Of a stretch of 64,000 bases of DNA, positions 35,180 to 56,602 are shown one piece after another. The translations under genes were made by a program, and so were the position numbers. Source of the stretch: a virus (lineage: Duplodnaviria; Heunggongvirae; Uroviricota; Caudoviricetes). The stretch lies in IMG/VR virus record IMGVR_UViG_3300018489_000278. One strand, 5' to 3'. Each line of letters opens with the position of its first letter. Position 1 is the first letter of the stretch. Below the pieces are notes generated by a model. It saw only the letters and a list, made by a program, of their open reading frames with translations, was not told the DNA's origin and made no database searches.

Positions 35180-35196
35180 GTAGTGTTTTTAATAAT

Positions 35197-36213: not shown

Positions 36214-36286
36214 CACCAGAAATAAGGGACATCACTAACCATATTACTAATATTAGTAGTAAAAAATCTTCATTGAACGAGAGCAA

Positions 36287-37156
36287 ATGGAAAAAATTGA
36301 CATAAATGAAAATCATTATGTTTATAAAAGCGTAGAAAGTGATCTATACGAAACTTCCGATAAAGCAGTAAGTGCATTAAAAAATACAGAAGACGATATT
36401 ATAACAAACATTAAGAAGATATATAAAACAAATATGGGTGATTCGCTCTTTTATCCTCTCCACAAATATATAGACAGAGGCAAAGCAGTATATGCATATG
36501 CGAGGCTCTTGCAGAGAAATGGTTCTAATTGGATAGTAAGAAGATGCTACTACTTGCCAGTAGAGGATGAACAAAATATCTCAGAAAGAGTATTTCATTA
36601 CGCAGAACGAAAAATAGGAATGTCTGCTTCTACATGTTTTTCTACAAGAAAACTTTCTGATGGTAAGTATTACGGTATAGTTTACGTGGACGATAGGACC
36701 GAACCAAATAAAGATGTTGGTACGCTACGTAGGGAGTATCTGACAAAACTACGAGCAGACCTCGATTTGATAGAATCGTCTTATGTGATAGCTACAAATG
36801 CGATTAAGAAAGAATTTAGCGATAAGAGAATAAAAACAATCAGTGTCTTCGGCAAGAAAAACGATGCAATAATCTTTAAACATTGTTTTTATAATGACTA
36901 CGAGAATAATTGGGGAGTGAAAGCAAGTATTACTTTAGCTGAGAAAGTATGTCTTGATATAGTAGATAAATTAGGTAAGAAAATAGATGGATGGAAATTT
37001 GACGACTTGAAGCTTGTTGAACCTGCGAATAATTTTTCTTTTGAATTTAGAAAAACAGACATTCCAACATACGCAGAAGCTGAAAAGATTTTGGATAATA
37101 AGATAAAGTCATTTATAGAAAAAGTAGCAAGTAAGAACATAGAGGAAGAAAGGTAA
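36287..37156 (+). CDS. Family A paralog 6
   Basis: GKAVYAYARL...VRRCYYLPVE, RKLSDGKYYGIVYVDD, NNWGVKASITLAE. Confidence 0.5.
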   Translation: MEKIDINENHYVYKSVESDLYETSDKAVSALKNTEDDIITNIKKIYKTNMGDSLFYPLHKYIDRGKAVYAYARLLQRNGSNWIVRRCYYLPVEDEQNISERVFHYAERKIGMSASTCFSTRKLSDGKYYGIVYVDDRTEPNKDVGTLRREYLTKLRADLDLIESSYVIATNAIKKEFSDKRIKTISVFGKKNDAIIFKHCFYNDYENNWGVKASITLAEKVCLDIVDKLGKKIDGWKFDDLKLVEPANNFSFEFRKTDIPTYAEAEKILDNKIKSFIEKVASKNIEEER

Positions 37157-37159
37157 GTC

Positions 37160-38325
37160 ATGCGAAACGAAGAATATAGAGAAGTGGGATATTATAAATT
37201 AGGCGAGCAAAAATTCAGCGATAAGGCAAAAATATTAACAGATGTGCATGTCCTTAAAAGAATTATAGATCATAGTCCAAATCAGTATTTTACATATGTG
37301 CATTTTTACTTACCGTGCAACTATCATGGTTCAGTTGTTCCTGAAATAGTTGGCAGAGGCCGTCAAATCAGTATAGAGTATAAAGGCCACACATATAATG
37401 TAGATTTAGACTATCCAGAAGCCTCTGCATATGTTGAAAATCTTCTCTATTTGCAATTCACTATATCAGGTTCACTACAAACAATGAAAGATGCAACAAT
37501 ATTTGCTAAAGAAATTGAGAGAAGGATGATTAAACAGTTACTTGAAAATTATGTTAACAATACACAAAAAATGTTATTATACAACCACTTAGTGTATCTG
37601 TGGATACCAAGAATAAAGTTTTTGCTTACGCTACATGTAGAGATACTAAGTTTAATCATATCATTAATACTTTTTATTTGCTTCCAGGCTACAATGCAGA
37701 ACAATCAATAAAAAGACCATTTTTACCTTCCGTGCACGATTTAGTTACCGAGGACCATGCAGAAGAATTAGGCGACCGCTATATGGATAATGGCCAAATT
37801 TATCATATGCTTTTAACACAAAACAAGATAAGTATTTCAGAGGATATAAATGATGTAATCAATCTTACCAAAGCAGAAATCGACAAGAGGTTTGAAAAAA
37901 TTAAGACGAAGTATTATGCAGCCAAGAATGAGATACAGAAAGAAACCAATACAAAAAATGTATTCTACCTCGATGTTGGCCATAATAGATTTGAGATAGA
38001 CATATTTAATACCTTTATTTTTGATTCGTATACATCAGAATGGAATTGCCATATAAGTATAGATATATACATGGATTGTGCGTTGAACAAAGGCATATTG
38101 AGAGAAGCAATGAGCAAGAATAATAGAGTCTTTCATGTTTTGTCTGTTGGTAAGACTTTACATGGTAACGATCTGTTAAGCGTTGAAGAATATGGAGCGA
38201 ATATACATCGCACTAGCACATTTGATGAGGCAAAAGACCAAGCAGATAGAATAACAAGCGAATTGTTGAATGATGTTTTTGATACTTTGAGAAAAGTTTA
38301 TGCAGAAAAAGAAGAAGAAAAATGA
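37160..38325 (+). CDS. Family A paralog 7, frame change at the A6 run near 37565
   Basis: N-terminal part carries QYFTYVHFYLPCNY; after the shift PLSVSVDTKNKVFAYATCRD...NTFYLLPGY and SEWNCHISIDIYMD. Confidence 0.45.
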
Positions 38326-38377
38326 TAAAACTTTTAAAATTATATACAAAAAAGTTAAATTTGTGGTATAATAGGGT

Positions 38378-38962
38378 ATGGAGCTAAAAGAACTATTAAA
38401 GTTTTTATTAGAAAAACAAAAGAAATGCCAATATGTGGTCTCTTTTAAAGAGATCTGTGAACAATTTACAGACGAAAAGGCACAGAGTATTAACATTCAG
38501 CTTCACAGATTTGCAAAAGAGGGTATGATTGTACCACTTGTCAAAGGATACTACACAAATCCATTCATGGCAGAAGAAAAACCAGAAACAATTCTGTTAG
38601 AACTTGCAAAGAAATTGAGACCTAACGATAAATTCTATTTGTCTTTAGAATATGATGCTTTCGAGTGCAATATGATCAATCAAGTGCCTAATGGTTTTAC
38701 TTTTGTAACTACTGGTAGAAGTTATAGGTATTATACACCGGTTGGAGTTATCCATTTTACTCATTTATCGAATATCAATTTAGAGTCTGAGTATATCTTC
38801 CAAGATAAATGGAGAGGAATTTATGTTGCAGAACCAAAACAAATTATTATGGATGCAATCAAGCTTAAGAAGTTTGATTTAATTGATCTTATTTTAGAGA
38901 AAAATGATGAATACAAGAGCGTAGAAGATCTATTAGAGAATTATAGAGAGGAGGAAGATTAA
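38378..38962 (+). CDS. AbiEi-like antitoxin (type IV TA transcriptional regulator)
   Basis: 194 aa directly upstream of and coupled to an AbiEii-family nucleotidyltransferase. Confidence 0.5.
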   Translation: MELKELLKFLLEKQKKCQYVVSFKEICEQFTDEKAQSINIQLHRFAKEGMIVPLVKGYYTNPFMAEEKPETILLELAKKLRPNDKFYLSLEYDAFECNMINQVPNGFTFVTTGRSYRYYTPVGVIHFTHLSNINLESEYIFQDKWRGIYVAEPKQIIMDAIKLKKFDLIDLILEKNDEYKSVEDLLENYREEED

Positions 38963-38963
38963 G

Positions 38964-39806
38964 ATGAGCATGAAAATTAATTTTAATGAAGGGAAAAAGT
39001 CGAGAGAAACGATTCAACTGATTATCTTACAGATCTTATCCGATAGAGGTTATACAAACGATATTACTTTTCACGGGGGCACATGCGAACATTTCTGCTA
39101 TAAAAATCCGAGGTATTCTGAAGACCTTGATTTTGTTACCACAAAAAATGTTAATTTTAATGCTATAAGTCAAACACTTCAAGAAGAACTGCCAAAATAT
39201 ATTTCAAACAAGATAAAAGTTGTGGGCCAAGAGAGAGATTATTCAGACAACATTGTTAAAAAGATTAAAGTAAGAGTTTTTCCGGATGATCCTAATAAAA
39301 GAAAAATTGAGGTTATTGTTGAATTTGCAACAGACATTCCAAACTACACAAGAGTATTCGCCAATATTAAAGGAGGTGAATTCGATTTTTCTTTAAATGC
39401 AGAGGCAATGGAAGAAATTTTGGCAGATAAAGTAGTTGCATTTGGCTCAAGAGCAATTTGGAAAAGTACTCCTTTTAAGGCGCGTGATTTATGGGATATT
39501 TATTGGTTAATTCAAAATAACATTAAACTCGATCCTTCTATGGTTGTTAAGAAGATAAAAAATTATAAAGAGAGTTACACTAATTTTCTTGAAATATTTG
39601 AAAAAAGATTAGAGACTCTCCATGATGAAAAAAGTATAGATGCGTTTCAGAACGGAATGCTTTCTTATGTTGATGGTAGAGAAGAGGAATTGGTTAAAGA
39701 TAAAGATTTTGTAAAGAATCTACTCTCAACCATTTATCCATTTTTATCTGATGCTTTGCATAAAGTTGAAGAGAACGCGAGATATGCAGAAGAACCTGAA
39801 AGATAA
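38964..39806 (+). CDS. AbiEii/AbiGii-family nucleotidyltransferase toxin (DUF1814)
   Basis: ITFHGGTCEHFCYKNPRYSEDLDF matches the family GGTxL...R.SxDLD nucleotidyltransferase motif. Confidence 0.65.
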   Translation: MSMKINFNEGKKSRETIQLIILQILSDRGYTNDITFHGGTCEHFCYKNPRYSEDLDFVTTKNVNFNAISQTLQEELPKYISNKIKVVGQERDYSDNIVKKIKVRVFPDDPNKRKIEVIVEFATDIPNYTRVFANIKGGEFDFSLNAEAMEEILADKVVAFGSRAIWKSTPFKARDLWDIYWLIQNNIKLDPSMVVKKIKNYKESYTNFLEIFEKRLETLHDEKSIDAFQNGMLSYVDGREEELVKDKDFVKNLLSTIYPFLSDALHKVEENARYAEEPER

Positions 39807-39882
39807 ATGAAAGATATGATACAAGCTCAGTTGTTAGTATATTCATCAGCGTTTAAAGAAGTTTTTGTAGAAATCGTAAATT

Positions 39883-41082
39883 ATGAATTATAAGGAGGCG
39901 TACACAATGAGACAAATGAGTAGAATTGCTTTACCACCAATAAAGTTAGACGATGACTTTATTGTATCACATGACTTTATAAGCGAATACGAAACATCAT
40001 ATAATGTTGTTAGGTATTCTTTTTATGTTCCTATTCTCCAGTATTCAGATAGAGAATATCTTGTTATCCCAGAATTAGATAATAAATTGCCTGGGCATTC
40101 TTTGTTAATTGATTTTGGAGAAGATAATGGCCGTGAGAGTATTCTTTCTACAGCATACAGAGACAGAAAAGTATTTTTAATCGATTCTGACTATTATTAT
40201 AAAGCCGAATTTATGAGGTCTTTCCCTACTTATCAATCTGCTACAAAAAACATGAAGGATGTTGCAGAACAGGTAAAGAATAAAGTTACCTCATTATATT
40301 CCTCTGCTGTTTCTGATATGATTGTTCCTCCTCAAAAAATTGAGATTGGAGGCAGTAAAAGTTATTTGTATACAACTTTTGCTGATGGTACAAAAAATAA
40401 GTTTGTAAGTAGGTTTTATTATTTGCCTTACCACTATAGGTCATCTATTTATCGTAATGTTGAAAATGGATATGGAGGTTTTTTGCATAAACTTACAAAA
40501 GATCCTAACTTTAAGTATGTAGGCATAAGAAAGAGCAACAACGGAGTTAAACAGTATTATGTTGTAATGATACAAGAAAGTATTGATAAAGCTCTATCTT
40601 ATGTAGATATTAAGTCTTTTTATCAAAATAAAGCCAAAGAAGATATAGAAGCAATCCAAAATGGTTATAAACATGCGATGGAGTCTTTTGCAAAAGAAAA
40701 AGAAGATAAGAAGGATTTTACTGTTCATAACATATTTGGAGATATACAATATACAGCCGTAACTACTTATTCGTATCTTGAAAATGAAGATCGGTGGCAC
40801 ATGAAAGCATCAGTTCGTCTTTTTGTTCCTTCCAATTCTGCTATTTCAGATCTTTTTGTTAACGCAATGGAAACTATCGGATTTAAAAATGCTAGTAATC
40901 CTGCATACTCAGTAAATATTGATGGCCAACCTATGGATATTCATTATATCAATATAGGGTCTGTTGATACAAATACAATAGAAGATGGAGAAACAAAGGC
41001 TATGGAGTTTATTAATAAGTTTCATTCAGCGGTACAAAAATCAGTTATGTTAGCTATGCAAACAAGACGAGTAGAAAGATAA
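39883..41082 (+). CDS. Family A paralog 8 (divergent)
   Basis: MIVPPQKIEIGGSKSYLYTTF...SRFYYLPYH and DRWHMKASVRLFVPS. Confidence 0.45.
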   Translation: MNYKEAYTMRQMSRIALPPIKLDDDFIVSHDFISEYETSYNVVRYSFYVPILQYSDREYLVIPELDNKLPGHSLLIDFGEDNGRESILSTAYRDRKVFLIDSDYYYKAEFMRSFPTYQSATKNMKDVAEQVKNKVTSLYSSAVSDMIVPPQKIEIGGSKSYLYTTFADGTKNKFVSRFYYLPYHYRSSIYRNVENGYGGFLHKLTKDPNFKYVGIRKSNNGVKQYYVVMIQESIDKALSYVDIKSFYQNKAKEDIEAIQNGYKHAMESFAKEKEDKKDFTVHNIFGDIQYTAVTTYSYLENEDRWHMKASVRLFVPSNSAISDLFVNAMETIGFKNASNPAYSVNIDGQPMDIHYINIGSVDTNTIEDGETKAMEFINKFHSAVQKSVMLAMQTRRVER

Positions 41083-43491: not shown

Positions 43492-43869
43492 ATGGAGAAA
43501 CTGTATCTTCTGAACTCTGGGAATGTTCCTGTTGACTGGGAGCATTATCCTAAGGTAGTTGTCGAAGAAGCAGTAATAAGTAAAGATAGCGTTAAAATGA
43601 TACTCCAGAACACTAAATTTGTAAATGCCGTAGGCCACGAAGCAACTGCAAAGTTTTTAAGTGAATTGCTTGATATAGATATAAAGCCTGTTAGAAGAAA
43701 AGTTCTTCTCGAACCTGGTGATAGAGCAATATGTTTCCAACTGTTAGATAGATTACCTGAAGGTAAAGTTTTGACAGAAGAAGAATTAAGTAAAATTCAG
43801 TACAAATTTATACTTGCATATGTAAAAGAAAAAACTTTGGTGGAAGAGATAGAGGAGAGCGAACGATGA
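43492..43869 (+). CDS. DUF1874-like (STIV B116-like) small phage protein
   Basis: KLYLLNSGNVPVDWEHYP...VNAVGHEATAKFLSELLDIDI...LEPGDRAICFQL; recalled family resemblance, not verified. Confidence 0.35.
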   Translation: MEKLYLLNSGNVPVDWEHYPKVVVEEAVISKDSVKMILQNTKFVNAVGHEATAKFLSELLDIDIKPVRRKVLLEPGDRAICFQLLDRLPEGKVLTEEELSKIQYKFILAYVKEKTLVEEIEESER

Positions 43870-44285
43870 ACCCTGACGCAAATGCATTATTTTATAGTCA
43901 TCAATATATTCTTTCAGATAAAGAAGGAAAACCTGTTAACATTTTTATAGGTCAAAAGATATTTTTTGATAAAGATGAGCAAAGATGGTATGCGGTAGTT
44001 AGCTTTTTTGCGCCTGGTTCAGTTGTTATGGGACAACCAGCATTAGACAACTTTAATGTTAACGAATTCGTGAACGCTATTAGTTATCCGTTAACAGAAC
44101 CATGCGCCCAACTTGTTACTTATAGCACTATTGATGGCAAAACATACCTGCAATATGACACAATGGCTTTTCTCGAGCAGAATTTTGCTGGTTCTATGGC
44201 GAAGCTTAATGAATTTGAGAAAGAAGCATTGCTGAAGTTGGAGAATGAATTAAAGAAGAATTACCATAAAGAACAAGAAAGGTAG
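43866..44285 (+). CDS. Hypothetical protein (139 aa)
   Basis: Overlaps upstream stop (ATGA). Confidence 0.25.
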   Translation: MNPDANALFYSHQYILSDKEGKPVNIFIGQKIFFDKDEQRWYAVVSFFAPGSVVMGQPALDNFNVNEFVNAISYPLTEPCAQLVTYSTIDGKTYLQYDTMAFLEQNFAGSMAKLNEFEKEALLKLENELKKNYHKEQER

Positions 44286-45293: not shown

Positions 45294-46106
45294 ATGCAAC
45301 AAAACATATTTTCAGAAACTAAAAGTTATAAAATAGCAGAAAATATAGATGTAGCATTTTCTGTCTCATATGTAGAGACAAGTATAAAGTGGATAGTTGA
45401 CATACGTTGCATGCTCCCTGTAAACGATTCACGAGCACTGATTAGAGAATTATGGAAAGAGGATGAGGATGTGTTCGGTAATGAATTAGAGCCTTTTATT
45501 GGTGAGTTTTTCACAACGGATAACGATTCCTCTTTTCGTGTTGTTTCTAATACTTTCTTTTTTCCTATTGACAGAGATATTACAGATGTTAAAAAAGAAA
45601 TTAATAAAATTATAAATGACATAGTCAATATGCTAAGTCAAGTATATCTTTCAAATATAAGTAGGATTAAAAATGAGATCCATGATAGTAAACAGATTGT
45701 TTTATCAACGCATTCTGACAATAATAACTCTATTGTTATATTAATTAAAAGAGATATTGGTTTTGCCACACTTTTGCATAAGTGGTATCTTGATACTACA
45801 GTGGGTATACCTGCAATAAAGAAAGGCGCTGTTGTATCACTTATTCCTGAGTTTAACAAAATAGGTGATGCGAATATTCGTCAAATTCTGTTTCCCGATA
45901 AGTTAGATGTGGAAGAGAATGTATTGAATACTGAGCAAGGTCTTTTTTGTCTTTTTTATAGTCGTGAATATTTTAAGACATCAGACATAGAAGCAGTAAA
46001 TATAATCAAAGAATATGTTGAAGAAGAAAATCAGAGGATTATTAATTCTCTTGAAGATATAGTTAGAGATTATGTAAGAAAGGTGCAAGAGAATGGAATA
46101 TATTGA
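45294..46106 (+). CDS. Family B paralog 1 (hairpin-LP module family)
   Basis: ENIDVAFSVSYVETSIKWIVDIRCMLPVND and a second module ...TTVGIPAIKKGAVVSLIPE. Confidence 0.5.
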   Translation: MQQNIFSETKSYKIAENIDVAFSVSYVETSIKWIVDIRCMLPVNDSRALIRELWKEDEDVFGNELEPFIGEFFTTDNDSSFRVVSNTFFFPIDRDITDVKKEINKIINDIVNMLSQVYLSNISRIKNEIHDSKQIVLSTHSDNNNSIVILIKRDIGFATLLHKWYLDTTVGIPAIKKGAVVSLIPEFNKIGDANIRQILFPDKLDVEENVLNTEQGLFCLFYSREYFKTSDIEAVNIIKEYVEEENQRIINSLEDIVRDYVRKVQENGIY

Positions 46107-46890
46107 AGAGTATTATACTTATACGATAGATGATAATATAGATGTTCTTTTTAGTGTTCTGTATAAAGATCATGATGTTGAAGTTACAGTATTCTTGCCC
46201 ACAGCAGGGGATGATTCACCTTATTTGAAGTATGAACTATTAGATCCGGGTGTAAAGATTTTCAGAGAAGAACTTGATAACAATTTTGGCAGGCTAACAC
46301 ACATAAAAGTTAAAGCAAATGAAACATCATATTATCTTGCCAGCGATAAGATATTTGAGTTTCCCTCTTATTATGATTTTAATCGAATCAAGAAAGAAGT
46401 TTTGGATATCATAGAAGAGACATTTAATACCATTAAAGGCGTCTATTTACACAATAAACATATGTTAAAGCAAGATTTTTCAACGACTAAATTATTCACA
46501 CTTAAGAACAAAACTGTAGATGGACAAGAAATTCGAGTTTATATTAAGTGGGATGTCTTTTACCATTTATTGCCTAAAATGTGGTATGTTGAACTTTCGA
46601 TATTTTTGCCAGCAGATGAGAAAAGTGGACACGAAAAACCTATTCCTGAATTAAGATGTAAAAATTTATTAGCTCTTGAGAAAAAAATTTTTGATGTTTG
46701 TGACTTAGTAACAACTGAACCCGTATGTATTGGAAATGAGTGGTTCTATGCGTTAGAGAACGAAGCTGCTTATAAAGTAACCGGTAGCGAAGCTGACATG
46801 CGGAAAGAAATAGAAGAGAGAACGACTAAAATTATTAGTATACTTGATAATCTTGTTAAGAAAAACAGATCTGCTATGGTAGAGAGGTGA
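46093..46890 (+). CDS. Family B paralog 2
   Basis: DNIDVLFSVLYKDHDVEVTVFLPTAGDD; KMWYVELSIFLPADEKSG. Confidence 0.5.
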   Translation: MEYIEEYYTYTIDDNIDVLFSVLYKDHDVEVTVFLPTAGDDSPYLKYELLDPGVKIFREELDNNFGRLTHIKVKANETSYYLASDKIFEFPSYYDFNRIKKEVLDIIEETFNTIKGVYLHNKHMLKQDFSTTKLFTLKNKTVDGQEIRVYIKWDVFYHLLPKMWYVELSIFLPADEKSGHEKPIPELRCKNLLALEKKIFDVCDLVTTEPVCIGNEWFYALENEAAYKVTGSEADMRKEIEERTTKIISILDNLVKKNRSAMVER

Positions 46891-46896
46891 GCTTTA

Positions 46897-47694
46897 TTGG
46901 AGAAAGAATATATAATTAGGAATATAGACGATAAAATACAGATCACTTTTGATATTGAGTATAAATTTAATGAAGGTATAGCATATATTCATCTTATATT
47001 ACCTGTAAATAAATCAGGTTTTCTTATTGAAGAGCTACAGAGTAGCAAAGAAAGTGTTTTAGGGAAAAAATTATGGAAAATGTGGGGCAAGGAAGTCTTA
47101 TCAGGATCTAATCACAATAATCGTTTTAGAGAAGTATCTATTCCTTTTTATATACCTAACAACAATATGTTCGTGGCAAAACAAGTTGTTTACGATGCGA
47201 TAGACAGCATCACAAATAAACTTAAGCAGATATCAACAGAAAATAAAAGAGAAATGAGTAAGAACTTCGAAAAAGAAGAAACGATAGTATTAGGCAACAA
47301 AACAGCGAATAACACGATAATACAAATCATATTGAAAGAGTTTTTCTTTTTTGATACTTACGATCGGGAATGGTGCTACATACTACATGTCGGACTACCT
47401 TCAGAAGTGCAACAGGGGAGAATTATCCCAAGCACAAAGATATTAAGAATAGCAGATAAAAATGAAATCCTATCAAAATATCACTTGTTTCTTGATGCTA
47501 ATGCAGATACAGAAACAATTGGGAAGGAGCGATATGTATTCTTGAGAAGCAAAGTTTACTCGTGTGGAAACGATTATAATAAAGCAGTGCAAATTGCAGA
47601 AGAGATAAAAACACAAGTTGTCAATAGCATAGAAAAAGAAGTATTGAAAAACAGAGAACATGATATAATGTTAATAAAGAGTGAGCAGAGGTGA
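46897..47694 (+). CDS. Family B paralog 3
   Basis: DDKIQITFDIEYKFNEGIAYIHLILPVNKSG; REWCYILHVGLPSE. Confidence 0.5.
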   Translation: MEKEYIIRNIDDKIQITFDIEYKFNEGIAYIHLILPVNKSGFLIEELQSSKESVLGKKLWKMWGKEVLSGSNHNNRFREVSIPFYIPNNNMFVAKQVVYDAIDSITNKLKQISTENKREMSKNFEKEETIVLGNKTANNTIIQIILKEFFFFDTYDREWCYILHVGLPSEVQQGRIIPSTKILRIADKNEILSKYHLFLDANADTETIGKERYVFLRSKVYSCGNDYNKAVQIAEEIKTQVVNSIEKEVLKNREHDIMLIKSEQR

Positions 47695-48124
47695 ACTATG
47701 GAGAAGAAATTTTTACAAGGAGATGTCTATGCTTCCTGATGTAGAGACAGTATGGCAAGAAACTTATAGTAAATTGAAAGAGGCATGGGCAGAGGCCAAT
47801 CAAAATAAAACAGATTTCAGTCGGTTTATAGAAGGTATTACTTATGTTCCTAAAGAAAATTTTTCGTTATTGCTTGTTGTAAACCTTCGTTTTTATGATG
47901 ATTATAAAATGAATGGACAGTTGTTAATAAGTCTTAATATGTTACCTAACTTTATTGCTATTAGCGACATAGAATTTTGTCTTCCTTTTATAAACTCAGC
48001 TACTTGCGAGATAACAGATAAGGACCAAATAGAGTTGGTAGAACAGATTTTTAATACTTACCTTATACCTTTTGTCAGAAACGCTATTTATAGAGGAAAA
48101 GAAGATAACGAGCAGGTGATGTGA
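47681..48124 (+). CDS. Hypothetical protein (147 aa), possibly family B-related
   Basis: LLLVVNLRFYDD...LLISLNMLPNF. Confidence 0.3.
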   Translation: MSRGELWRRNFYKEMSMLPDVETVWQETYSKLKEAWAEANQNKTDFSRFIEGITYVPKENFSLLLVVNLRFYDDYKMNGQLLISLNMLPNFIAISDIEFCLPFINSATCEITDKDQIELVEQIFNTYLIPFVRNAIYRGKEDNEQVM

Positions 48125-48125
48125 T

Positions 48126-49312
48126 ATGAAACAAGTGATATTAAAAAATGGTTTGCCTGTAAACTTTGAAATCATTAAGAAAGAAACAGGAGAGACGGTG
48201 GTAGATTTTTCTTTTAATTTTCCGTCAGACGATACATACGAATACTTTAATAATTTATTCCTAGAAGCGAAAAGATCTGATGAGCCACTAACAGAAAAAT
48301 GCAAAGTAAATATCTTTGATAATAGAGCTTATTCGAAATTTCATGAAGATAAGTATGAAGTTTCTATGGAACAGGTAAAAGATTTTATTAAAACGCCAGA
48401 AGAGCTTATAGACGCAATTGTTAATAGGTTAAACAATAATATAGATAAAAGCGTAGCAGAACAGTCTGTATCAAAAACAATTACTTCTTCTTATGTTTTG
48501 TCTTCAAGAGATGTGTCTTTGAATATTCGATTTACTGAAGAATATAAATTCCGATCAGGAACGTGGCAATGCACTATTACTATGTTTTGCCAGAAGAGCC
48601 GGAGCCTCAAAAATGGATTGAACACATGAAGAGAGCAAAATATCTCAATCATTATTTAGTAGATATGTATACGCCGACGCTAATGTGGACATTGTTTTTA
48701 GCTGATTTTTGGGGCCATAGCGATCCTAGTATACCTGGCTATGTTTATGAACATTGTCATTATGAGTTGCAGAAATTGACTATTAATGATTTTGATGTTA
48801 TCAAAAATGGTGTAGATGCAATAAAAAAAGATACGATAGAAAACCTGCAACGAGTTCTTGACAAGAATGTTTTTTATTACGACTGCATACCTGATAAAGT
48901 CACAGAGATTAATATAAATAACAAGAAAATACAAATTAGGAGGAATTTTGAGTATAATTCTTATCGCAATCTGTTTGATGTTAATGTTTATTTTATTGTT
49001 CCTGCAAGACCTGACGGTAGACTAGATCGTGATATTGCTTTTTTAGTAGATAATTTGAGTGACAGTGCTTTTAGGCGTCCTTTAATGGCGGAAGAGATTG
49101 AGTCTAAGGGTGTTTTTTCTAATAAAGATTCTACTCTTACGCTTTATCTTGGTGATTTTGAGTACCAAATGAATAAAATACCTTTTGAATACAGAAAAAG
49201 AGTCAATGGTTTATATGAATATGCAGACATGAGAAGTGAACGCTTTGCGAAACGAATAGAAAGAAAGATACTTAATAGGTATAAACAAAAAATGTTAGAA
49301 GAGGCGAGGTAG
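48126..49312 (+). CDS. Family A/B-related paralog, frame change near 48560
   Basis: 48126-48629 and 48563-49312 overlap in different frames; the junction reads ...KFRSGTWQ / AMHYYYVLPEEP (YYLP signature); later NVYFIVPARPDGRLDRDIAFLV. Confidence 0.4.
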
Positions 49313-49376
49313 AAATGTCATACCAAAAAATGGTATACAGAGATGATGAAAAGATTCCAACGGAGGATAATGAAGA

Positions 49377-50561
49377 ATGAAACAGCCTGATGTTGTAGAA
49401 AAAAGAAAATTGTTGTCAGGTGATGAGGTTTGTTTTTTAGCATTTAAACAGGATTCTTCAAAGTATCGCGTCATGGTATTGCTACCTTTATCGAAAAATG
49501 TAGAGGAGAATTTTGTTAATTTTGTATATCCGGATACACGAGTAAACAGTAGTTTTGATTTTTTATATAACAGAGTGAATAATGTTTCTTTCGAAGGTAA
49601 AGACTATTTTTGTTTTGAAACAGACAAAGAGAAAGCAATTTCTGTCAATTTGTTTAATAACTTCATTGATAGCGTAGTTAATAAATTAGAGAATAATTGG
49701 AAATATAACCAGGCTAAGAAAATGTTTGATCGTGAATATTTAACAAGTTATTATGTTGGAGACGGCGATAAAAAGTATTTTTCCATATTCATAGTAGTTT
49801 TAGTTATAAGCCTAGCGTACAAAAGTGGTTGTTTTCTTTAGAGTTGTTTGTTCCAGAAGCTCCAGATAAAGAAGGCTCTGTTCCTTTTCTTTTAAGGACA
49901 CCTGATACTAATTTTAATCTTTTAAGGATAAAGATTTTTATTCCATTGTTGTCGATGGAGAAAAATATCAACGCGAGACATTAGTTGAAAGATCCAGCGA
50001 TGACATAAAAGAACTTATACAATATAAAGAAGAAATAGAGAAAGATACAGTGGATATGGTTACGAAGGTATACAACTATAATTTAGCGATAGATGATAAA
50101 GTTAAGTTTCTTAACAACAACAATAAACAAACGGTTGATATAGGCAAAGGAATTAGCGTACAATTTGAGAAGAAGTTTTCTTTTAATCCGTTAAAAGACA
50201 GAGTATCTGTTAGTGTTATTTTTTATTTGCCTACGGAGGCAGACGGTACTGTAAAAAAGAGCTAATCAATAAACCTTTACCTACGGTTAATGCAGACTTT
50301 CATAAAATTCACCAAGATAGAGAAACAAAAGAAATATATATTACGGAGAATACAGGGCAATTGGTTCATGGCAATACAAGAAAGATAGATGATTTAAAAT
50401 TTGGTTGTAAACTTTGCAATACAAATAAATTGGATATACAAGAGGCTTTAAAAAGATTAGATGACATGGATCGGACTGCAGACAAAGTAGCTAGTGGTTT
50501 TATTCAAGTTTTAAAGAAGATATATCAAAAAAATACGCAGGCATCGTTAGAGGAAAGATAA
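49377..50561 (+). pseudogene. Family B-like gene(s) broken by several frame changes
   Basis: 49377-49841 frame 0, 49772-49998 frame 2 (LFVPEAPDKEGSVPFLLRTPD), 49918-50265 frame 1 (SVSVIFYLPTEADGTV), 50361-50561 frame 0; all carry family B motifs. Confidence 0.35.
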
Positions 50562-50563
50562 TT

Positions 50564-51412
50564 ATGGAGCTGATAGGAATATCTTTAAACAACTATACAT
50601 TAAAAGGGAAGACGCATTCTTTAGATATAAAAATGTATGAAGAGCATTATATAGATGAGAATAAAGTCTTGCATTGTCGCTTATCAGCGTTCCTCCCATC
50701 TCTTGACGGCAAGTTGCATCCACTTCTTGGTAGTAACAATTTTAGAGTACTCGATGAACTTCTTACTGAACAGTTTGGTCGTTCAGAAGAAGATAAAAAC
50801 TTGAAAATTGAAGGATATGTCTCTGTCTCATCCGTGACAAACATGGGAATAATTTCTCTTGATACTTCACGAGACAGAATGAGTCGATTTGAAAATTATT
50901 ATGTTAATTCGCTTACTGATATATTGTTGTATAACGAAAAAGCATTATATTACGCTGTTCCAGATAAACATGTGTATATTACTGTAGAGCAACAAATTAT
51001 ATTAATTGACATATCTTTTTCATATGATACTTACGCAAGAACAGTATTTGCTAAAGTTGATTTTTACCTTCCAACAGATCACAAAGGAATGCTTCACCCT
51101 TTGTTAGTCGATAGGCATAAAAGAGGAAAAGCAGCAATATACGATAATAGCAATGGTCGTTTCTACAAGCTCGTTCCCGATGTAGGAAGGTTAAACAGTG
51201 CAGGTAATTTCAGGGTTGTTACGACGCGTTGGAGCTGTGATAATATAGATACGCATGTTGTTGGTATAAGTTCTTTAAAAACAGATGTGGATACTCATCT
51301 TGCACGTATATTTAAAAGAGCAGAAGATCAAATAGATAAAAAGATAAACAAATGGTCAAAAGAAGTTGAAGAACTTGCTAAAGCTAATTCAAGAGAGGTG
51401 TTAGATAGATGA
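50564..51412 (+). CDS. Family B paralog with two modules
   Basis: LHCRLSAFLPSLDGKLHPLLG and AKVDFYLPTDHKGMLHPLLVD...GRFYKLVPDVG. Confidence 0.5.
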   Translation: MELIGISLNNYTLKGKTHSLDIKMYEEHYIDENKVLHCRLSAFLPSLDGKLHPLLGSNNFRVLDELLTEQFGRSEEDKNLKIEGYVSVSSVTNMGIISLDTSRDRMSRFENYYVNSLTDILLYNEKALYYAVPDKHVYITVEQQIILIDISFSYDTYARTVFAKVDFYLPTDHKGMLHPLLVDRHKRGKAAIYDNSNGRFYKLVPDVGRLNSAGNFRVVTTRWSCDNIDTHVVGISSLKTDVDTHLARIFKRAEDQIDKKINKWSKEVEELAKANSREVLDR

Positions 51413-52635
51413 CAGAAAATACAGAAATAATATCTAGAGATGTGTATAGAAGAAATTTAATTGATGGGACACCTATCTTATTTGAGGTATCTACATTTGA
51501 GAATAAAACGAACAAGCAATTGGATAGGAAGATAAGGGCTTTTTTGCCTTATATAGATTACATGGAAGGACCTCACACCGCGAGGAAAGAAGAACCTTTT
51601 ATTTTTTACTCTCCATATATGATATGTGGCTTTGTGTTTAATAGGGTACCTAGGACAGAAGTTATAGATGTTGGAGGACAGATATTTTTTGCGATAGAAC
51701 AGACTGCGCAAGTTTTTTATCCTGACATTATAGATGACATTGTTAATAAATTGAACGAGAACTACAAATATAACACGGAGCAAAAGCACAAAGAAAAGCA
51801 TGTACAGACAGGTTACACTTTAACTTTAGGATCTGTATCTATTCAGTTCTTCGTTCATGATGACATTGAGTTTGTGCCAGATGCAGATATGTGGCTTGGT
51901 TATACTCAAATCTTTCTTCCTATGGAGACAGAGCGTGATAAATTTCCAAGTTATTATGGTATCTCGCATTATATAGCCAATAAAATAGTAAGAGTAGGAC
52001 ACAGTAGATTAAATGCAGGATGGGGAACACCTTCAAACAGATCTATAATGCCATTATATATGGTAGATGGTATAAGCCATGCACTTAGAAGAGATATAAG
52101 AGAAGTAGAACTTGAAATGGAAAATATGCGAGAAGAAATTTTTAATACTTTGAAGTCTGTTTTTGATTACAATGTTGCTGTATTTTCGCATGACTTCAGT
52201 CCGATGTTACAATCCGAGACATTCCACATAGGTAAAGGCATTGATTTAAAAGTAAAGTATGATAGTATTGATTACGACTCAGAAGAAAACACTTTTATTG
52301 TTGGCGTCTCTTTATATTTTCCAACAGGAGCGGATGGTTATTTAAGAAAAGAGTTAGTAAGTCATAATACGAGTCTTAGGATAAAAGACGATGCTAGTGG
52401 AATGCAGTATCTTTTTGAGAAAGACTTGGGCGTCCCAACTGCAGATGGAAGCAGATTGTTGAAGGTGTCTTTCTATATTCCTGATGATTTTGCTCCAGGT
52501 AGCAACAATTATGCTAAAGGATTAAAAGATGAGAACTTTGTTGGTTTATACAAAAAATTGGATAAGAGAGTATCAAGAATAGTGTCGTCTCTTCGTAAGA
52601 TTTATGAGTACAATACGCTTGAAGAGGTAAGGTAA
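51409..52635 (+). CDS. Family B paralog with four modules
   Basis: IRAFLPYID; YTQIFLPMETE; VGVSLYFPTGADGYLRKELVS...GMQYLFEKDLGVPTADG; KVSFYIPDD. Confidence 0.5.
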   Translation: MTENTEIISRDVYRRNLIDGTPILFEVSTFENKTNKQLDRKIRAFLPYIDYMEGPHTARKEEPFIFYSPYMICGFVFNRVPRTEVIDVGGQIFFAIEQTAQVFYPDIIDDIVNKLNENYKYNTEQKHKEKHVQTGYTLTLGSVSIQFFVHDDIEFVPDADMWLGYTQIFLPMETERDKFPSYYGISHYIANKIVRVGHSRLNAGWGTPSNRSIMPLYMVDGISHALRRDIREVELEMENMREEIFNTLKSVFDYNVAVFSHDFSPMLQSETFHIGKGIDLKVKYDSIDYDSEENTFIVGVSLYFPTGADGYLRKELVSHNTSLRIKDDASGMQYLFEKDLGVPTADGSRLLKVSFYIPDDFAPGSNNYAKGLKDENFVGLYKKLDKRVSRIVSSLRKIYEYNTLEEVR

Positions 52636-53182
52636 TGGCGGAGAATCTTGTTATAGATTACAGTGAGTATACGCTTATAGATGATAGTAATGTTTATTTT
52701 GAAGTGGCATTAGTCGATGAAGAAGAGCAAAAAGATTATTCGCTTTTTCTTATCGCCTATATTCCTATAAGTGCAGGTAATATTCGTCATTATATTGGCG
52801 ACAGCATATATGGTTTTATTGATATTAATAAATTTATTAGAAGCGAGGATACAATTTATTTTAATGGTGTGCATTGCGACAAATATACTTTCTCTTGTAA
52901 TTCTTTAGAAGAAGCAGAAGTTCTTAAAAAAACATTATTAATACAGCTAATTTTAATATTCGAAAGAATGATATGGAGGTTAGTAAAGAATATAGTAAGG
53001 CAAAAAAGATTAATTTTGTGTATAAAGGTGCTTCATTAGACATTATAACTTGCAAAGATTTTCGTTTTGATAAATTTAATGGTAGGTGGTATTGTTTTGT
53101 GTATGTACTTTTACCTAAAGATAAAGAATTTAACAAGTTTGTAGATCCTTTTTCAGTAAAGAAATTATTTCTGAATATATAG
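52635..53182 (+). CDS. Family B-related small paralog, probable frame change near 52980
   Basis: 52635-53039 (SLFLIAYIPISAGN) and 52973-53182 (RWYCFVYVLLPKDKE) overlap in different frames. Confidence 0.35.
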
Positions 53183-53376
53183 CAGACAAAGACAAAATTT
53201 CTATTTATTTAGGAAGCGAACATGTTGTTTCAGGCGGTAGTCGTTTTGATGAATTTTTTGGCGATAATATCCATGATGATAATGTTATTAAAGAAGTTAG
53301 CAAAATCGCAAATCCTAATGACTACCTTTGTTTTGTTATAACAGAACCGACCACTACACTTCAGAATGCAGAGCTG

Positions 53377-53892
53377 ATGGCTGATAATTTTGCTTCAGAC
53401 TGTGTAAAAATATTAGACGATCTTTTTAAAAAAAATGTTGATTTGATTTCTTCACAAGATAGCTTCAATATTGCAAAAGATGTCAAGATAGATAAGAATA
53501 CGATAATTCATATTCGAAATAAATTTGCTTATTATTCCTACCATAATGAGGTTTTAGTGAAAGTCTCTTTATTTTTACCTACAGATGCATCAACAGGGCT
53601 TCTAAGGAATGATTTTGTTGATAAGTATAATTTACTAGGCAGGATACAAGATAGTACAAACAGAAGAATAATACTTGTACCTAATGTAGGTGTAAAAGAC
53701 GGCGAGTATAGAAGGATTGATCTTGGCCTCGTGTACGGAGAAAAAGATTTAAAGGTAAAAGGATTAATGCCATCGGACGGACTTATTGCATCAGCAAGAC
53801 ATAAATCAGATGTTTATACGCAGAGACTTATCAAGAATATAATAAATATGAGACGTTACAATATAGAAAAAGGTACGGTGATAGAAAGATGA
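53377..53892 (+). CDS. Family B paralog, single module
   Basis: VKVSLFLPTDASTGLLRNDFVDKYN...RRIILVPNVGVKDGEYRRIDLGLVY. Confidence 0.5.
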   Translation: MADNFASDCVKILDDLFKKNVDLISSQDSFNIAKDVKIDKNTIIHIRNKFAYYSYHNEVLVKVSLFLPTDASTGLLRNDFVDKYNLLGRIQDSTNRRIILVPNVGVKDGEYRRIDLGLVYGEKDLKVKGLMPSDGLIASARHKSDVYTQRLIKNIINMRRYNIEKGTVIER

Positions 53893-54028
53893 TTACCAAG
53901 CAGAAACTTATAGACGGAACTGAGTGTTTATTTGACATTGAAAAAATAGTAAGGGATACTCTGCAGTTTATGCTTTTGTTCCAGTAGATACATCAGATAA
54001 TAGACGCAGAGCTGCAATTCCTAAATTA

Positions 54029-55156
54029 TTGCAAGGACCCATATTGCCGAAGAACATAGAGGAAGGCGATAAGCTTGATGGTTCAATTGATACTTTTACT
54101 GTTATTGGTGGTAAATCTTATATAGTGCATAGATATGTTTGCAAAGAAAAGTTAGCGTTGCAAGTTGTTAACGATCTGTATGACATTCTTAATAATAATA
54201 TTGAATACAACCTCCGGATGATGACGAACGAATCTACAAGATTATTGACTTACAATATAGGCAATGACACAACGTCACTTGAAGTTAAATTTTTAGTTGA
54301 GCATAGATATATTCCAAGTGTTAGGAAGTGGATATACAACGTAGTGACATTTTTGCCGATAGAGGACACAATACCGTACTATCTTTTAGGTAATATACCA
54401 AAAGAAGAGCAAGATAGTCTTTATTTATCTTATTACATAGGTAATAGATATAATGCTGGAAATTTACTAGGTTCTTTTGATTATCATTGGGGTTTACCTA
54501 CATGTATAACTCTTGGCGAGCCTTTTTACGATAAGTTTAGAACAATGCCTGGGTACAGATTTATGCAGATTACTTTTAATGATAGTGATGAAGAAGCGAA
54601 TAAACAACAAGGAGCAGAAGTAGAAAAATTTATACAAGATACCATTGATACTTTATCTAAAATCTTTGAATATAACAGCATTATGATTCATAAGCAATAT
54701 ATGTTAAGTGAAAAGCAAATAGTTGGTCCAGATGAAAACGGACAATATATTAAAGTGATACTTACGAGGAATTTTTACTACAATACATACGCTAATGAAG
54801 TTAATGTTTTATTTTCTATTAAATTACCGGTGGAACCTGGCGACCCTGATTGTCGTGTCCATCATTTGTTAGTTGACAAAGATAAGAAATTTAAGATATA
54901 TACTGGGCAAAATACAGAATTTACGATAGAACCTACATCAGGTGTCATTGATAACAATCGCACGACAAATAATTATAGAAAAATATCTTTTTTGATGAGA
55001 TATATGGATAGAGGTGCTATTAATTTTAACGTACAAGATGGGAAACATACTTTTGACAAAGCTGAATTAGATACAAATGATTTAAAAAGAAAAATACGTA
55101 CTACGATAGAAGGGATATATAATTATAATAGACATGTATTAGAAGAAGAGAGGTGA
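54029..55156 (+). CDS. Family B paralog with two modules; true start probably upstream
   Basis: YNVVTFLPIEDTIPYYLLG and VLFSIKLPVEPGDPDCRVHHLLVD; the upstream frame reads SAVYAFVPVDTSD. Confidence 0.45.
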   Translation: MQGPILPKNIEEGDKLDGSIDTFTVIGGKSYIVHRYVCKEKLALQVVNDLYDILNNNIEYNLRMMTNESTRLLTYNIGNDTTSLEVKFLVEHRYIPSVRKWIYNVVTFLPIEDTIPYYLLGNIPKEEQDSLYLSYYIGNRYNAGNLLGSFDYHWGLPTCITLGEPFYDKFRTMPGYRFMQITFNDSDEEANKQQGAEVEKFIQDTIDTLSKIFEYNSIMIHKQYMLSEKQIVGPDENGQYIKVILTRNFYYNTYANEVNVLFSIKLPVEPGDPDCRVHHLLVDKDKKFKIYTGQNTEFTIEPTSGVIDNNRTTNNYRKISFLMRYMDRGAINFNVQDGKHTFDKAELDTNDLKRKIRTTIEGIYNYNRHVLEEER

Positions 55157-55159
55157 TTT

Positions 55160-55763
55160 ATGTTAATTAGTTTTGAAGGTATTGATGGTTGTGGAAAAAC
55201 AACTATTGCGAAAGCCGTCTATGAGAAGTTGTCTAATTTAAGCATGAAAGTATTGCTAACAAAAGAGCCTGGCGATACTAAAATGGTAAGTACATCCGCG
55301 ATATACTGCTTCAAAAAAACAATGCATTAGATCCTCTATCAGAGTTTCTTTTATTTGCAGCAGATCGTAGATTACATGTAAAGGAAGTAATAATTCCTCA
55401 TTTAAGAGAAAATTATGTGATTCTTTCTGATAGATTTATGGATAGTTCTGTTGCTTATCAAGGATATGGTAGAGGCGTACCTATCAGTTTTATAGAAAGC
55501 GTTCACAAAGAAATACTAAACGGCATAAGACCTGATATGACTTTTTGTTTGATCTACCAGTTAGTATAAGCTTGAGTAGACTAAAAGATAAAGACCGAAT
55601 TGAAAGGTACGGCGAGAAATTCTTCGCACGTGTGCGAAAAGGATATCTTACACTTGCAAAAAAAGAAGAAAATAGATTTATTATATTGGACGGTGAGAAA
55701 AATGTTGAGACTCTTGCTGATGAAGTTTTTACTACAATAATTAACCGCATTGAGGAGTGTTAG
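55160..55763 (+). CDS. tmk: Thymidylate kinase, read across three frames (two frame changes)
   Basis: MLISFEGIDGCGKTT P-loop, then LSEFLLFAADRRLHVKEVIIP...LSDRFMDSSVAYQGYGRG, then C-terminal piece 55545-55763. Confidence 0.7.
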
Positions 55764-56602
55764 ATATGGAAGAAGAAATAAACCGCACTGAGGATTATTC
55801 AATAAATGAATTAGGTATTACGATAAAGATTTTAGAGAAATATATTCAACAAGGCACACAATGGATTTGTGATTGCGATGTTTTGTTGCCGGTAGACGAT
55901 ACAATGTTACAAAAATATTCGATATTTGTTCCGTTGCGATACCTTATGAATATACATACTAATATAGGTAATAAATGGCTAAATCAATTTTATGGACAGC
56001 ATAGCGTAGTGTTATATAATTATTTAGGAGAAACTTTTCACTTTATTTCGTCAGATCTTAAACAACTTATGGGTGATATTGATGGTTTTAAAAAAGATCT
56101 CGTTTCTCTTTTGAATGTTATAGCTAAATATAATTTGGAAATGATTGAAAATGAAAAAGAATTAGAACCTATGCTGTTTAGTATAGATAGAGACATACAG
56201 ATTAGTTGTTACAGAAAAGTTATGTATGACACTTATAGAAGCGAAATTCAGATTCCAATAGAGATGCATTTGCCTGTAGAAGAAGATGGTTTGCTGAAGC
56301 GAGAGTTAGTTGATCCATCAGGTAAAAGATACTTATTTGACAACACTTTGACTTTTGCAAGAAAGCAATTTCTTGTTCCTTCTATTGGAGAATATGACGA
56401 AGCATTAAATGTGCGGAAAGTATATCTTACGTATTGGTCCCCAGATACATATAGTAGTGATTTGAATACAATGCTTGGTTTGAAATTGTTTAAAAAAGTG
56501 ATAGCCGAATCAAGTAGTTTAATTAAGAAGAATATTGCAGTGTTGGAGAAAGTATATCTTAAGAATCTTGAATTGGATAAAGTTTGCGAGAGTAAAAAAT
56601 AA
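55757..56602 (+). CDS. Family B paralog with two modules
   Basis: WICDCDVLLPVDD; SEIQIPIEMHLPVEEDGLLKRELVD...KQFLVPSIGEYDE. Confidence 0.5.
   Translation: MLDMEEEINRTEDYSINELGITIKILEKYIQQGTQWICDCDVLLPVDDTMLQKYSIFVPLRYLMNIHTNIGNKWLNQFYGQHSVVLYNYLGETFHFISSDLKQLMGDIDGFKKDLVSLLNVIAKYNLEMIENEKELEPMLFSIDRDIQISCYRKVMYDTYRSEIQIPIEMHLPVEEDGLLKRELVDPSGKRYLFDNTLTFARKQFLVPSIGEYDEALNVRKVYLTYWSPDTYSSDLNTMLGLKLFKKVIAESSSLIKKNIAVLEKVYLKNLELDKVCESKK

Follow-up and report, generated by a model that had tools for sequence, protein, structure and literature searches.

Tandem arrays of multi-domain paralogs built from a previously undescribed protein domain in an AT-rich mobile element joined to Coprothermobacter DNA

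Between positions 45,294 and 56,602 of the stretch of DNA analysed here (64,000 nucleotides, hereafter the window), consecutive genes encode proteins that repeat a hairpin motif, which raises the questions of what the repeated unit is, whether it belongs to a known family, and what its many copies might do. An earlier note, made from the sequence alone, counted about 12 paralogs at this locus. The paralogy holds, as the listed ORFs are all real, lie on the + strand and are linked by BLASTP (E down to 3e-18), but the number does not. The locus, here called array 2, contains 10 family genes, co-oriented and tightly packed, with 2 or 3 tandem domain copies each (D1, D2 and D3 denote the domain types), and two non-family genes, one conserved and unrelated (47681) and one encoding thymidylate kinase (tmk). 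Its genes are as follows.

45294..46106, + strand: 270-aa family gene with two domains (45345-45686 and 45738-46094; HMM domain E-values 2.5e-30 and 2.2e-22; BLASTP to the gene at 46093, 3e-18)
46093..46890, + strand: 265-aa family gene with two domains, from ORF and HMM; domain 2 is divergent and the HMM detects it in two pieces
46897..47694, + strand: 265-aa family gene with two domains (46936-47274 and 47326-47658), from ORF and HMM
47681..48124, + strand: small conserved gene within the array, family membership not detectable (hhalign <1% to every domain profile)
48126..49312, + strand: one gene encoding three domains (395 aa in L072), which a 1-base frameshift near 48570-48626 divides in the window into ORFs 48126-48629 and 48563-49312
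49377..50561, + strand: one gene encoding three domains (395 aa in L072), disrupted in the window by three frameshifts at 49.8-50.26 kb
50564..51412, + strand: 282-aa family gene, D2+D3 (HMM 2e-32 and 3.8e-42); C-terminal domain 50999-51409 modelled
51409..52635, + strand: 408-aa family gene, D1+D2+D3, from HMM hits and three tandem fold copies in the AF2 model; pN/pS 0.12 among strain orthologs
52635..53892, + strand: three-domain gene of ~419 aa broken by indels; its N-terminal part is ORF 52635 (134 aa) and its C-terminal part ORF 53377 (171 aa)
53889..55156, + strand: three-domain gene of ~422 aa, D1+D2+D3; its ATG at 53889 overlaps the stop codon of the gene before it; in the window a frameshift falls between 53942 and about 53985
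55157..55750, + strand: tmk, a non-family gene interrupting the array; frameshifted in the window, intact in L001
55766..56602, + strand: 278-aa family gene, D2+D3 (P0001); pN/pS 0.08 against L001

Several of these boundaries depart from the first reading. The ORFs placed at 54029 and 55757 begin at 53889 and, per P0001, at 55766, and ORF 53377, taken for a separate 171-aa protein with one module, is a C-terminal fragment, as P0004 (291 aa) joins 52973..53892. The regions 48126-49312 and 49377-50561 do hold family genes as had been said; each is one gene, intact in L072 and frameshifted in the window. The gene at 46897..47694 is identical to P0040 and has a strain ortholog, P0002, with pN/pS 0.26. 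For the small gene at 47681..48124 the real product is probably 131 aa, from a later start; it is 34% identical to a 135-aa gene at the matching position in the relative L073 (pN/pS 0.06), and on its profile comparisons it was rejected as a divergent family member. Adjacent genes in array 2 either abut or overlap, with the Shine-Dalgarno sequence of each following gene placed within the 3' end of the one before it. The conserved C-terminal 'LEE(E/V/A)R' tail was considered as a cleavage or targeting signal and rejected, because it arises where the GAGG/AGAGG Shine-Dalgarno of the next gene sits within the coding 3' end. Scans for promoters and terminators in the region gave nothing above chance level.

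The repeated unit itself proves larger than the ~60-aa hairpin described earlier. In AF2 models it is a domain of ~115-130 aa with five strands, a one-turn helix after strand 2 and then a helix of 25-40 residues. The β1-β2 hairpin ends in [FY]x[LF]P and is followed by a turn with G-x-L...L-V-D, three further strands, and the long C-terminal helix ending in VYxxN. Structure prediction, suggested as a check on the hairpin, thus upheld a repeating fold and replaced the hairpin with this five-strand-plus-helix domain as its unit. The 408-aa protein (51409) is modelled as one fold three times in tandem (pLDDT 81.4, pTM 0.75), and the C-terminal domain of 50564 (50999-51409), modelled singly, gave pLDDT 79.9 and pTM 0.73; these models rest on shallow alignments of 11-13 sequences. 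Proteins therefore carry 2 or 3 domains where 1-4 modules had been counted, and the 408-aa protein has 3, not 4. The '...LVPxxG...R' continuation noticed in the best-preserved modules is part of the same conserved domain: the (L/V)PxxG...R segment falls within the three later strands, and alignment A4 shows little or no variation at P305, L316, V317, G341 and R349. Across the domain alignment the near-invariant positions are P and N only, while G, R, E and hydrophobic residues make up the remaining consensus; the domain alignments show no conserved constellation of residues of a catalytic type. None of the family proteins starts with a hydrophobic stretch, GRAVY values are negative except for one ORF fragment, and pI ranges from 4.75 to 9.4, mostly 5-7.

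Recurrence of the unit is far above what composition gives. Array 2 contains the core motif [hydrophobic][hydrophobic]P[TVSAIC][DENG] 13 times, whereas 500 shuffles gave 1.29±1.16 and never more than 5; this is the test by which the earlier note had proposed to refute itself. A second array upstream, array 1, has 9 against 0.97 in shuffles, and the rest of the window 5 against 4.74. The suggested domain HMM, once iterated, detects 20 domains in the window and 0 in 20 shuffled sets. A new family was delimited by mutual profile-profile probability >85%, and alignments A1-A5 with hhalign place in it the stand-alone proteins of ~116 aa found elsewhere, D1, D2 and D3 of array 2, and E1 and E3 of array 1. 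The signature is a hairpin ending hydrophobic-hydrophobic-(L/F)-P, a G-x-L turn, a strand segment with conserved G and R, and the VYxxN helix end. D2 and D3 match at 94%, D1 and D2 at 88%, and both D2 and D3 match the stand-alone family at 98%; most pairs lie at 86-98%, with D1 and D3 at only 71% and E2 at only 43%. The superfamily of array 2 also takes in array 1 and two or three scattered genes, and its domain copies number roughly 45-50 in all, spread across about 21 kb of the element. The further members and the gene pair within array 1 are listed here.

30438..41082, + strand: array 1, 9-10 genes of the same superfamily with domain order E1-E2-E3 (BLASTP; alignment A5; hhalign E3 to D3 96%, E1 to stand-alone 91%); 37160-38325 is one 388-aa gene, per P0003
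38378-39806: AbiEi/AbiEii pair interrupting array 1
43866..44285, + strand: 139-aa single-domain member upstream of array 2 (hhalign to D2 90.6% over 115 columns)
25776..26546, + strand: possible outlying member of 256 aa (HMM D2 1.7e-6 in window segments and 4.1e-7 in the ORF; hhalign only 55%)

The claim that the domain fits no known family stands, with no curated match in Pfam-A, PHROGs v4, NCBIfam 20 or PADLOC 2.0. The best Pfam values are E 0.009 or worse (12-16 bits against cut-offs of 26-40), those of PHROGs are E 0.017 or worse, and NCBIfam and PADLOC gave nothing significant; the defence and anti-defence models gave no match either, PADLOC covering defence proteins only. No counterpart of the domain was found in the PDB or BFVD. 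An HMM search of 1.84 billion representative proteins returned only 39 matches, one clearly spurious; P0022, a repetitive adhesin-like protein of 2171 aa, was dismissed as a homolog, since only a 44-column helix segment matched, in ten repeats. DNA mimicry of the DMP12 or Ocr/ArdA type, which goes with a pI around 4 and an excess of Asp and Glu, was rejected on the pI values above; the DMP12 match in Pfam reaches 16.4 bits, short of the cut-off of 27, over a helix segment of just 24 residues. The domain is previously undescribed, and its family would add an entry to the catalogues of protein families and folds.

The element that carries the arrays is mobile, AT-rich (32% GC) and at least 112 kb long, and is joined in the window to chromosomal DNA of Coprothermobacter. 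It provides a first look at such an element in connection with Coprothermobacterota, a phylum that has been little studied. It encodes ParB and an actin-like partition gene. Genes for nucleotide metabolism and replication (NrdD, ThyX, tmk, DnaN, DnaB) neighbour the arrays, with no recognisable structural genes adjoining. No capsid, portal or terminase gene was found in the 58 kb of the element within the window or in the next 9 kb, out of its at least 112 kb, and the element may or may not be a phage. It was not found in IMG/VR scans or among GenBank phages (tblastn, megablast), tblastn against PLSDB and a GTDB scan with one family protein gave no match, and Rfam and tRNA scans found nothing.

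The domain had been described as shuffled, which its order does not bear out. D1-D2-D3 or D2-D3 is kept in every array-2 member of that subfamily and also in relatives left out of model building, and this constancy points to duplication of whole genes and not to shuffling of domains. We infer from domain order and homology that the arrays arose by repeated duplication of whole two- or three-domain genes, followed by extreme divergence. Values of pN/pS between strains are 0.06-0.55, indicating purifying selection, and together with the intact ORFs in L072, L073 and L001 they show the array genes to be functional; short-term pN/pS being below 1, whole genes give no sign of positive selection. 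The relative L073 is syntenic, with flanking genes 91% (B116-like), 93.5% (139-aa), 67% (44626-like) and 58% (M50) identical, while its array has 15 genes that are only 21-34% identical to any window member and no 1:1 orthologs. Judged by these identities, the array is a hypervariable island that changes far faster than its flanking genes. Fast turnover is expected of proteins acting on the host; it could also come from relaxed constraint on redundant copies.

Stand-alone homologs of ~116 aa in other virus contigs always occur as 2-3 adjacent paralogs: three copies in tandem in the virus-like contig L079, two each in L080, L081 and L003, and three in the unclassified MAG contig L002. In unrelated small metagenomic viruses the family is found again as two or three genes in tandem. 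Because of this constant adjacency, the multi-domain proteins are probably covalent fusions of a hetero-oligomer of the domain, and the relationship between stand-alone and fused forms gives a testable prediction on hetero-oligomer formation. The best explanation overall, offered tentatively, is that the arrays of this new domain were made by gene duplication and serve as putative binders of host proteins. The products would be soluble, non-enzymatic binding modules made by the element to engage host proteins, with inhibition of defence or takeover of host functions as candidate effects. The scaffold would be conserved and every paralog would display its own diversified surface on it, which would explain how the array turns over faster than its flanks despite purifying selection on each gene. 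A more specific and more doubtful version is an arsenal of modular inhibitors on a new fold, fused hetero-oligomers whose variable surfaces would neutralise different host defence or housekeeping proteins.

Other roles have been weighed against host binding. Structural or assembly proteins (internal virion proteins, scaffolds or an intracellular lattice, with the sheet-plus-long-helix domains polymerising side by side) are unlikely. The paralog arrays would then resemble the inner-body protein families of phiKZ-like jumbo phages, but they lie between NrdD/ThyX and tmk/DnaN and not beside recognisable morphogenesis genes, the stand-alone copies in P23-77-like contigs lie upstream of the amidase-like/ATPase/capsid block, among small genes, and divergence to 21-34% is rare for structural proteins while neighbours stay at 58-94%. 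It is improbable that the proteins serve as chaperones or adaptors for products of the element itself, with partner polypeptides bound on the β-sheet face as in type III secretion class I chaperones and YbjN-like proteins. Such proteins are among the nearest structures (SycN 1xkp_B, STM2138 3epu_B, ExsC 3kxy_A, AmyR 5fr7_A), but the CesT/SycE-like and YbjN-like order of α-β-β-β-α-β-β-α differs from five strands with a one-turn helix after strand 2 and one long helix. The actin-capping protein α/β subunits (7a0h_B), also among the nearest structures, are 11% identical with a marginal score; the array domain has no N-terminal helical bundle, and the biology is unrelated. Slightly more improbable than chaperones are nucleic-acid-binding regulators or antitoxin-like proteins with a HicB/UPF0150 or dsRBD-like fold, controlling host or element expression. 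An AbiE toxin-antitoxin pair is embedded in array 1, and one array-1 protein, 35197, weakly matches HicB_lk_antitox (E 0.005, 17.4 bits) and UPF0150 (E 0.025, 15.0 bits), both below the gathering score of 27 bits. The likeness to HicB-like/UPF0150 proteins (PF15919, PF21748) is a β-hairpin followed by a proline-containing turn, which recalls HicB N-domains; no array-2 protein matches these families, and the modelled domain is not similar enough to solved HicB or UPF0150 structures to be grouped with them.

That the array is functionless and decaying, or that the motif recurs as a compositional artefact, is very improbable and largely refuted. Several members are frameshifted in the window, and the split at 48.6 kb does not lie at a homopolymer and is common to the JGI assemblies. 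Against decay, the window splits lie at or close to A/T homopolymers whose run lengths differ between near-identical assemblies, and differences between the window and JGI in the region are all indels, almost all in A/T runs; for the gene at 52635..53892 the assemblies differ by indels at 52925, 53002, 53019 and 53029. Similar indels strike tmk, dnaN and a methyltransferase gene, and the indels vary between assemblies that share 99.8-99.9% identity and have 0-2 mismatches; for these two reasons they are treated as sequencing errors. The same two facts led to rejection of programmed or phase-variable frameshifting at homopolymers, while stop-codon recoding was rejected since the breaks are frame changes and not in-frame stops. 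The family ORFs are intact in L072, L073 and L001, their pN/pS values indicate constraint, and the motif and HMM matches far exceed those in shuffles.

For the putative host binders, phage T7 Gp1.2, an inhibitor of the host dGTPase (7u65_G), offers a functional analogy only; the alignment spans roughly half a domain with 12% identity, and Gp1.2 has no sequence relationship and is neither multi-domain nor arrayed. Similar in organisation are multigene families of large viruses and elements, such as the poxvirus Bcl-2-like or ankyrin host-range proteins and the phiKZ inner-body paralogs, which likewise are divergent tandem paralogs with one conserved fold. The multicopy genes of Borg extrachromosomal elements (PMC12660748) are another lineage-specific multigene family of this class, and these families share with the present arrays a concentration in variable genome regions and evolution much faster than that of core genes. 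The arrays differ in fold and sequence family, in having the domain repeated 2-3 times per gene, and in their association with a thermophilic anaerobic host. Families so greatly expanded, faster-evolving than their neighbours and yet under purifying selection are prime candidates for new mechanisms of virus-host interaction. If the arsenal version is true, roughly one fifth of a ~112-kb element from a thermophilic anaerobe would be taken up by a single, hitherto unknown family of binders directed against the host, with a minimal version of 2-3 genes in small thermophilic viruses.

One of the small genes beside the stand-alone copies in the P23-77-like contigs is MazE/AbrB-like by a weak match.

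Across the array of paralogous genes at 45294-56602 (array 2), the analysis recovers a new domain family, present in 2-3 copies per protein in fixed order. All-against-all BLASTP of the + strand ORFs separates two distinct paralog groups, one at 30438-41082 (array 1) and one at 45294-56602, with E-values reaching 3e-18 within the latter; every array-2 ORF listed in the earlier note is found on the + strand. Relaxed to [hydrophobic][hydrophobic]P[TVSAIC][DENG], the motif that the note had described has 13 occurrences in array 2 versus 1.29±1.16 in 500 shuffles (maximum 5), 9 in array 1 versus 0.97, and 5 in the rest of the window versus 4.74. A domain HMM seeded with six C-terminal regions and iterated over stop-to-stop segments converges at 20 matches in the window, with 0 in 20 shuffled segment sets. 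The recurrence is therefore real.

The repeat unit is larger than the ~60-aa hairpin first proposed. AlphaFold2, given the C-terminal region of 50564 and 13 window-derived domain sequences, predicts strands at residues 2-10, 15-26, 46-49, 54-57, and 71-79, followed by a helix at 97-136 (pLDDT 79.9, pTM 0.73). In this model the note's "strand, turn, strand ending FYLPTD, GxLxxxLVD" corresponds to strands 1 and 2 with the next turn, and its continuation (LVPxxG...R) to strands 3-5. Protein 51409, modeled in full (408 aa) with 11 homologs (pLDDT 81.4, pTM 0.75), shows the same fold three times, each copy closing with a long helix (104-126, 230-260, 376-407); the two models therefore make the unit a domain of ~115-130 aa. 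Profile-profile comparison relates the positional subtypes of array 2 to one another (D1 to D2 88%, D1 to D3 71%, D2 to D3 94%) and each subtype to a stand-alone protein family (92-98%). Array-1 domains fall in the same superfamily (E3 to D3 96%, E1 to the stand-alone family 91%), with a weak link (43%) for the middle domain, E2.

Gene boundaries in the window need correction. A Logan contig 97.8% identical to it (L001) differs at five 1-base gaps (four within A/T runs) and has intact tmk and dnaN genes, both split in the window; four JGI contigs (99.8-99.9% identical) show 0-2 mismatches and 4-30 gaps, nearly all in A/T runs. An ENA scaffold (L072, 95.8% identical) carries one intact 395-aa ORF in place of window 48126-48629/48563-49312 and another of 395 aa in place of the broken series from 49377 to 50561. 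Library proteins P0003 (388 aa) and P0004 (291 aa) span the splits at 37160-38325 and 52973-53892. Together these comparisons point to assembly indels as the source of most broken ORFs. Against the near-identical assemblies the window shows 1-base indels, almost all of which lie in A/T homopolymers (for example 55279, 55541, 59094, 59486, and 60004), and several array genes are split as well as tmk and dnaN; the assembly looks like an unpolished long-read one, or one otherwise prone to homopolymer errors. After correction the paralogy of array 2 stands, and the "about 12" paralogs become ten family genes:

Genes of array 2 after correction (start or coordinates, strand, content)
45294, + strand, family gene of a separate subgroup, two domains
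46093, + strand, family gene of the same subgroup, two domains
46897, + strand, family gene of the same subgroup, two domains
47681-48124, small conserved gene unrelated to the family
48126, + strand, family gene
49377, + strand, family gene
50564, + strand, family gene
51409, + strand, family gene
52635-53892, + strand, family gene of ~419 aa, its C-terminal domain previously read as a one-module 171-aa protein (ORF 53377)
53889, + strand, family gene, its true ATG (previously placed at 54029) overlapping the stop codon of the gene before
55766, + strand, family gene, previously started at 55757
tmk, non-family gene

Family membership of 47681 was rejected (hhalign probability below 1%). This gene has a same-position counterpart in a divergent relative (34% identity), and its pN/pS of 0.06 indicates strong constraint.

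Each array-2 protein has two or three domains rather than one to four modules. Within the D1/D2/D3 subfamily the order is D1-D2-D3 or D2-D3, as it also is in relatives outside model building, and this fixed order argues for duplication of whole genes and against the "shuffled" domain that had been suggested. Domain count does follow protein length (r=0.91, n=60, some of these proteins having been in the training alignments): most proteins with one domain have 114-139 aa, most with two have ~265-318 aa, and those with three have ~380-420 aa. The two arrays hold roughly 45-50 domain copies in all. Array genes overlap or abut, and the Shine-Dalgarno sequence of the next gene (GAGG or AGAGG) falls inside the preceding coding 3' end, which accounts for the conserved C-terminal EE(E/V/A)R tails. 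Many genes across 30-56 kb finish in EE(E/V/A)R or VER (for example 50540-50563 and 52612-52635), with frequent overlap of start and stop codons (ATGA or TAATG), an arrangement that implies translational coupling along the arrays.

The domain has no significant match in Pfam, PHROGs, NCBIfam, or PADLOC, its best profile hit among PDB sequences has an E-value of only 0.05, and its best in BFVD has E 0.12 with TM below 0.3, in agreement with the earlier note, which could place it in no known family. GenBank phages and PLSDB plasmids give no match. Large viruses are known to carry tandem multigene families; no description of this domain, its intragenic triplication, or the scale of its expansion was found in the libraries or literature searched. 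An HMM scan covering all of 1.84 billion representative proteins returned 39 matches in five groups, which include the element's own proteins, two- to three-domain proteins agreeing by length with array genes of a divergent relative (contigs L073/L074), a small branch whose N-terminus differs (P0015, P0027, P0029), and about 20 stand-alone proteins of 114-130 aa with the motif YLPxDxxGxLxxELRN…WG…R…VYxxN. One match, the repetitive adhesin-like protein P0022, is spurious. Stand-alone genes occur as two or three tandem paralogs in AT-rich contigs. Three of these (L079-L081) are identified as P23-77-like viruses by genes for a VP16-like capsid protein and an ATPase of the Zot/DUF87 type, another (L003) carries a small terminase, DnaB, primase, and a B116-like gene, and L002 is a MAG contig with stand-alone tandem copies; the family is associated with viruses and mobile elements. 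At L079 850-2176, and equivalently in L080 and L081, the two or three copies lie upstream of a small MazE/AbrB-like gene, and L002 and L080 both have a PF27247 (MJ1673) gene close to family members.

Window 1-4994 is Coprothermobacter chromosome (LepA, CoaBC, zinc alcohol dehydrogenase), 98.7% identical to Coprothermobacterota MAG contig JAZIGN010000003.1, and the homology ends at 4994. From ~5 kb on, the DNA is 32% GC with all ORFs on the + strand save short spurious ones. This element encodes a type IIG restriction-modification enzyme, methyltransferases, a secreted protease with prepilin-like proteins, RNA ligase, NrdD, ThyX, an AbiE pair, a B116-like protein, tmk, an M50 protease, DnaN, and DnaB; on a 111,788-bp JGI contig of this element, genes for an AAA_33 protein and an actin-like ALP protein come next. 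No capsid or terminase genes are present in the window's 58 kb of element or the next 9 kb, and an IMG/VR scan did not find the element, which may be a large phage, a phage-plasmid, or a plasmid. At 4994 a truncated ADH gene meets an N-truncated SPFH gene, and the 111.8-kb contig would start at about window 5482; the junction (window 1-5650) may be a true integration site or a chimeric join.

Individual genes are under purifying selection and the arrays turn over very rapidly. Between strains, pN/pS is 0.06-0.55 for family genes, which are therefore maintained by selection, and 0.05-0.38 for the neighbors tmk, methyltransferase, M50, and DnaN. Flanking genes shared with the syntenic relative L073 have identities of 91% (B116-like), 93.5% (43866), 67% (44626-like), and 58% (M50); the array of L073 has 15 genes of 274-420 aa, all intact, each 21-34% identical to any window member and without one-to-one correspondence. 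At this conserved position the array is a hypervariable island. Relative to L072, synonymous divergence is 0.009 in gene 49377 versus 0.15 in adjacent family genes, a pattern suggestive of recent recombination or gene conversion within the array. Directly after the STIV B116-like gene, 43866-44285 encodes a 139-aa single-domain family member, possibly a conserved "core" copy that serves a distinct role.

The stand-alone tandem paralogs elsewhere are inferred to correspond to the fused domains here, and this correspondence, with the compact three-domain model (pTM 0.75), indicates that the domains probably work as hetero-oligomers. In the consensus, near-invariance is limited to P and N, the other conserved positions being G, R, E, or hydrophobic, and the proteins are thus probably binders rather than enzymes. 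Being soluble, encoded among replication and nucleotide-metabolism genes, and diversifying far faster than their neighbors, they would most plausibly engage host proteins, in anti-defence or takeover, a role put forward tentatively. That they are structural or scaffold proteins is a weaker possibility, a chaperone or adaptor role is doubtful, and nucleic-acid-binding regulators are slightly less probable again. Functionless decay, which would have to accommodate pN/pS values indicating maintenance by selection, is very improbable.

Several other features of the element were observed. In the middle of array 1, 38964-39806 encodes an AbiEii nucleotidyltransferase toxin (Pfam E 5.8e-23), and the gene of its likely AbiEi partner lies upstream (38378-38962). 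At the start of the AT-rich element (6286-9661), a DUF7149 protein precedes an 831-aa Eco57I/MmeI-like type IIG restriction-modification enzyme that carries a DUF7814 domain at its N-terminus. In the region 18587-24208, a trypsin-like protease of 762 aa, secreted and carrying Cu_amine_oxidN1 and fn3 domains, precedes three proteins that have prepilin-type N-methylation motifs and one more protein of 484 aa; such a pilus-like or pseudopilus module is unusual on a mobile element. The anaerobic ribonucleotide reductase is in pieces: an ATP-cone ORF (28336-28857) is separate from the catalytic ORF (28980-30413), which covers positions 91-529 of the 562 in the NRDD profile, and ~34 kb downstream a further ORF of 70 aa (17518-17730 of JGI contig L066) also matches NRDD.
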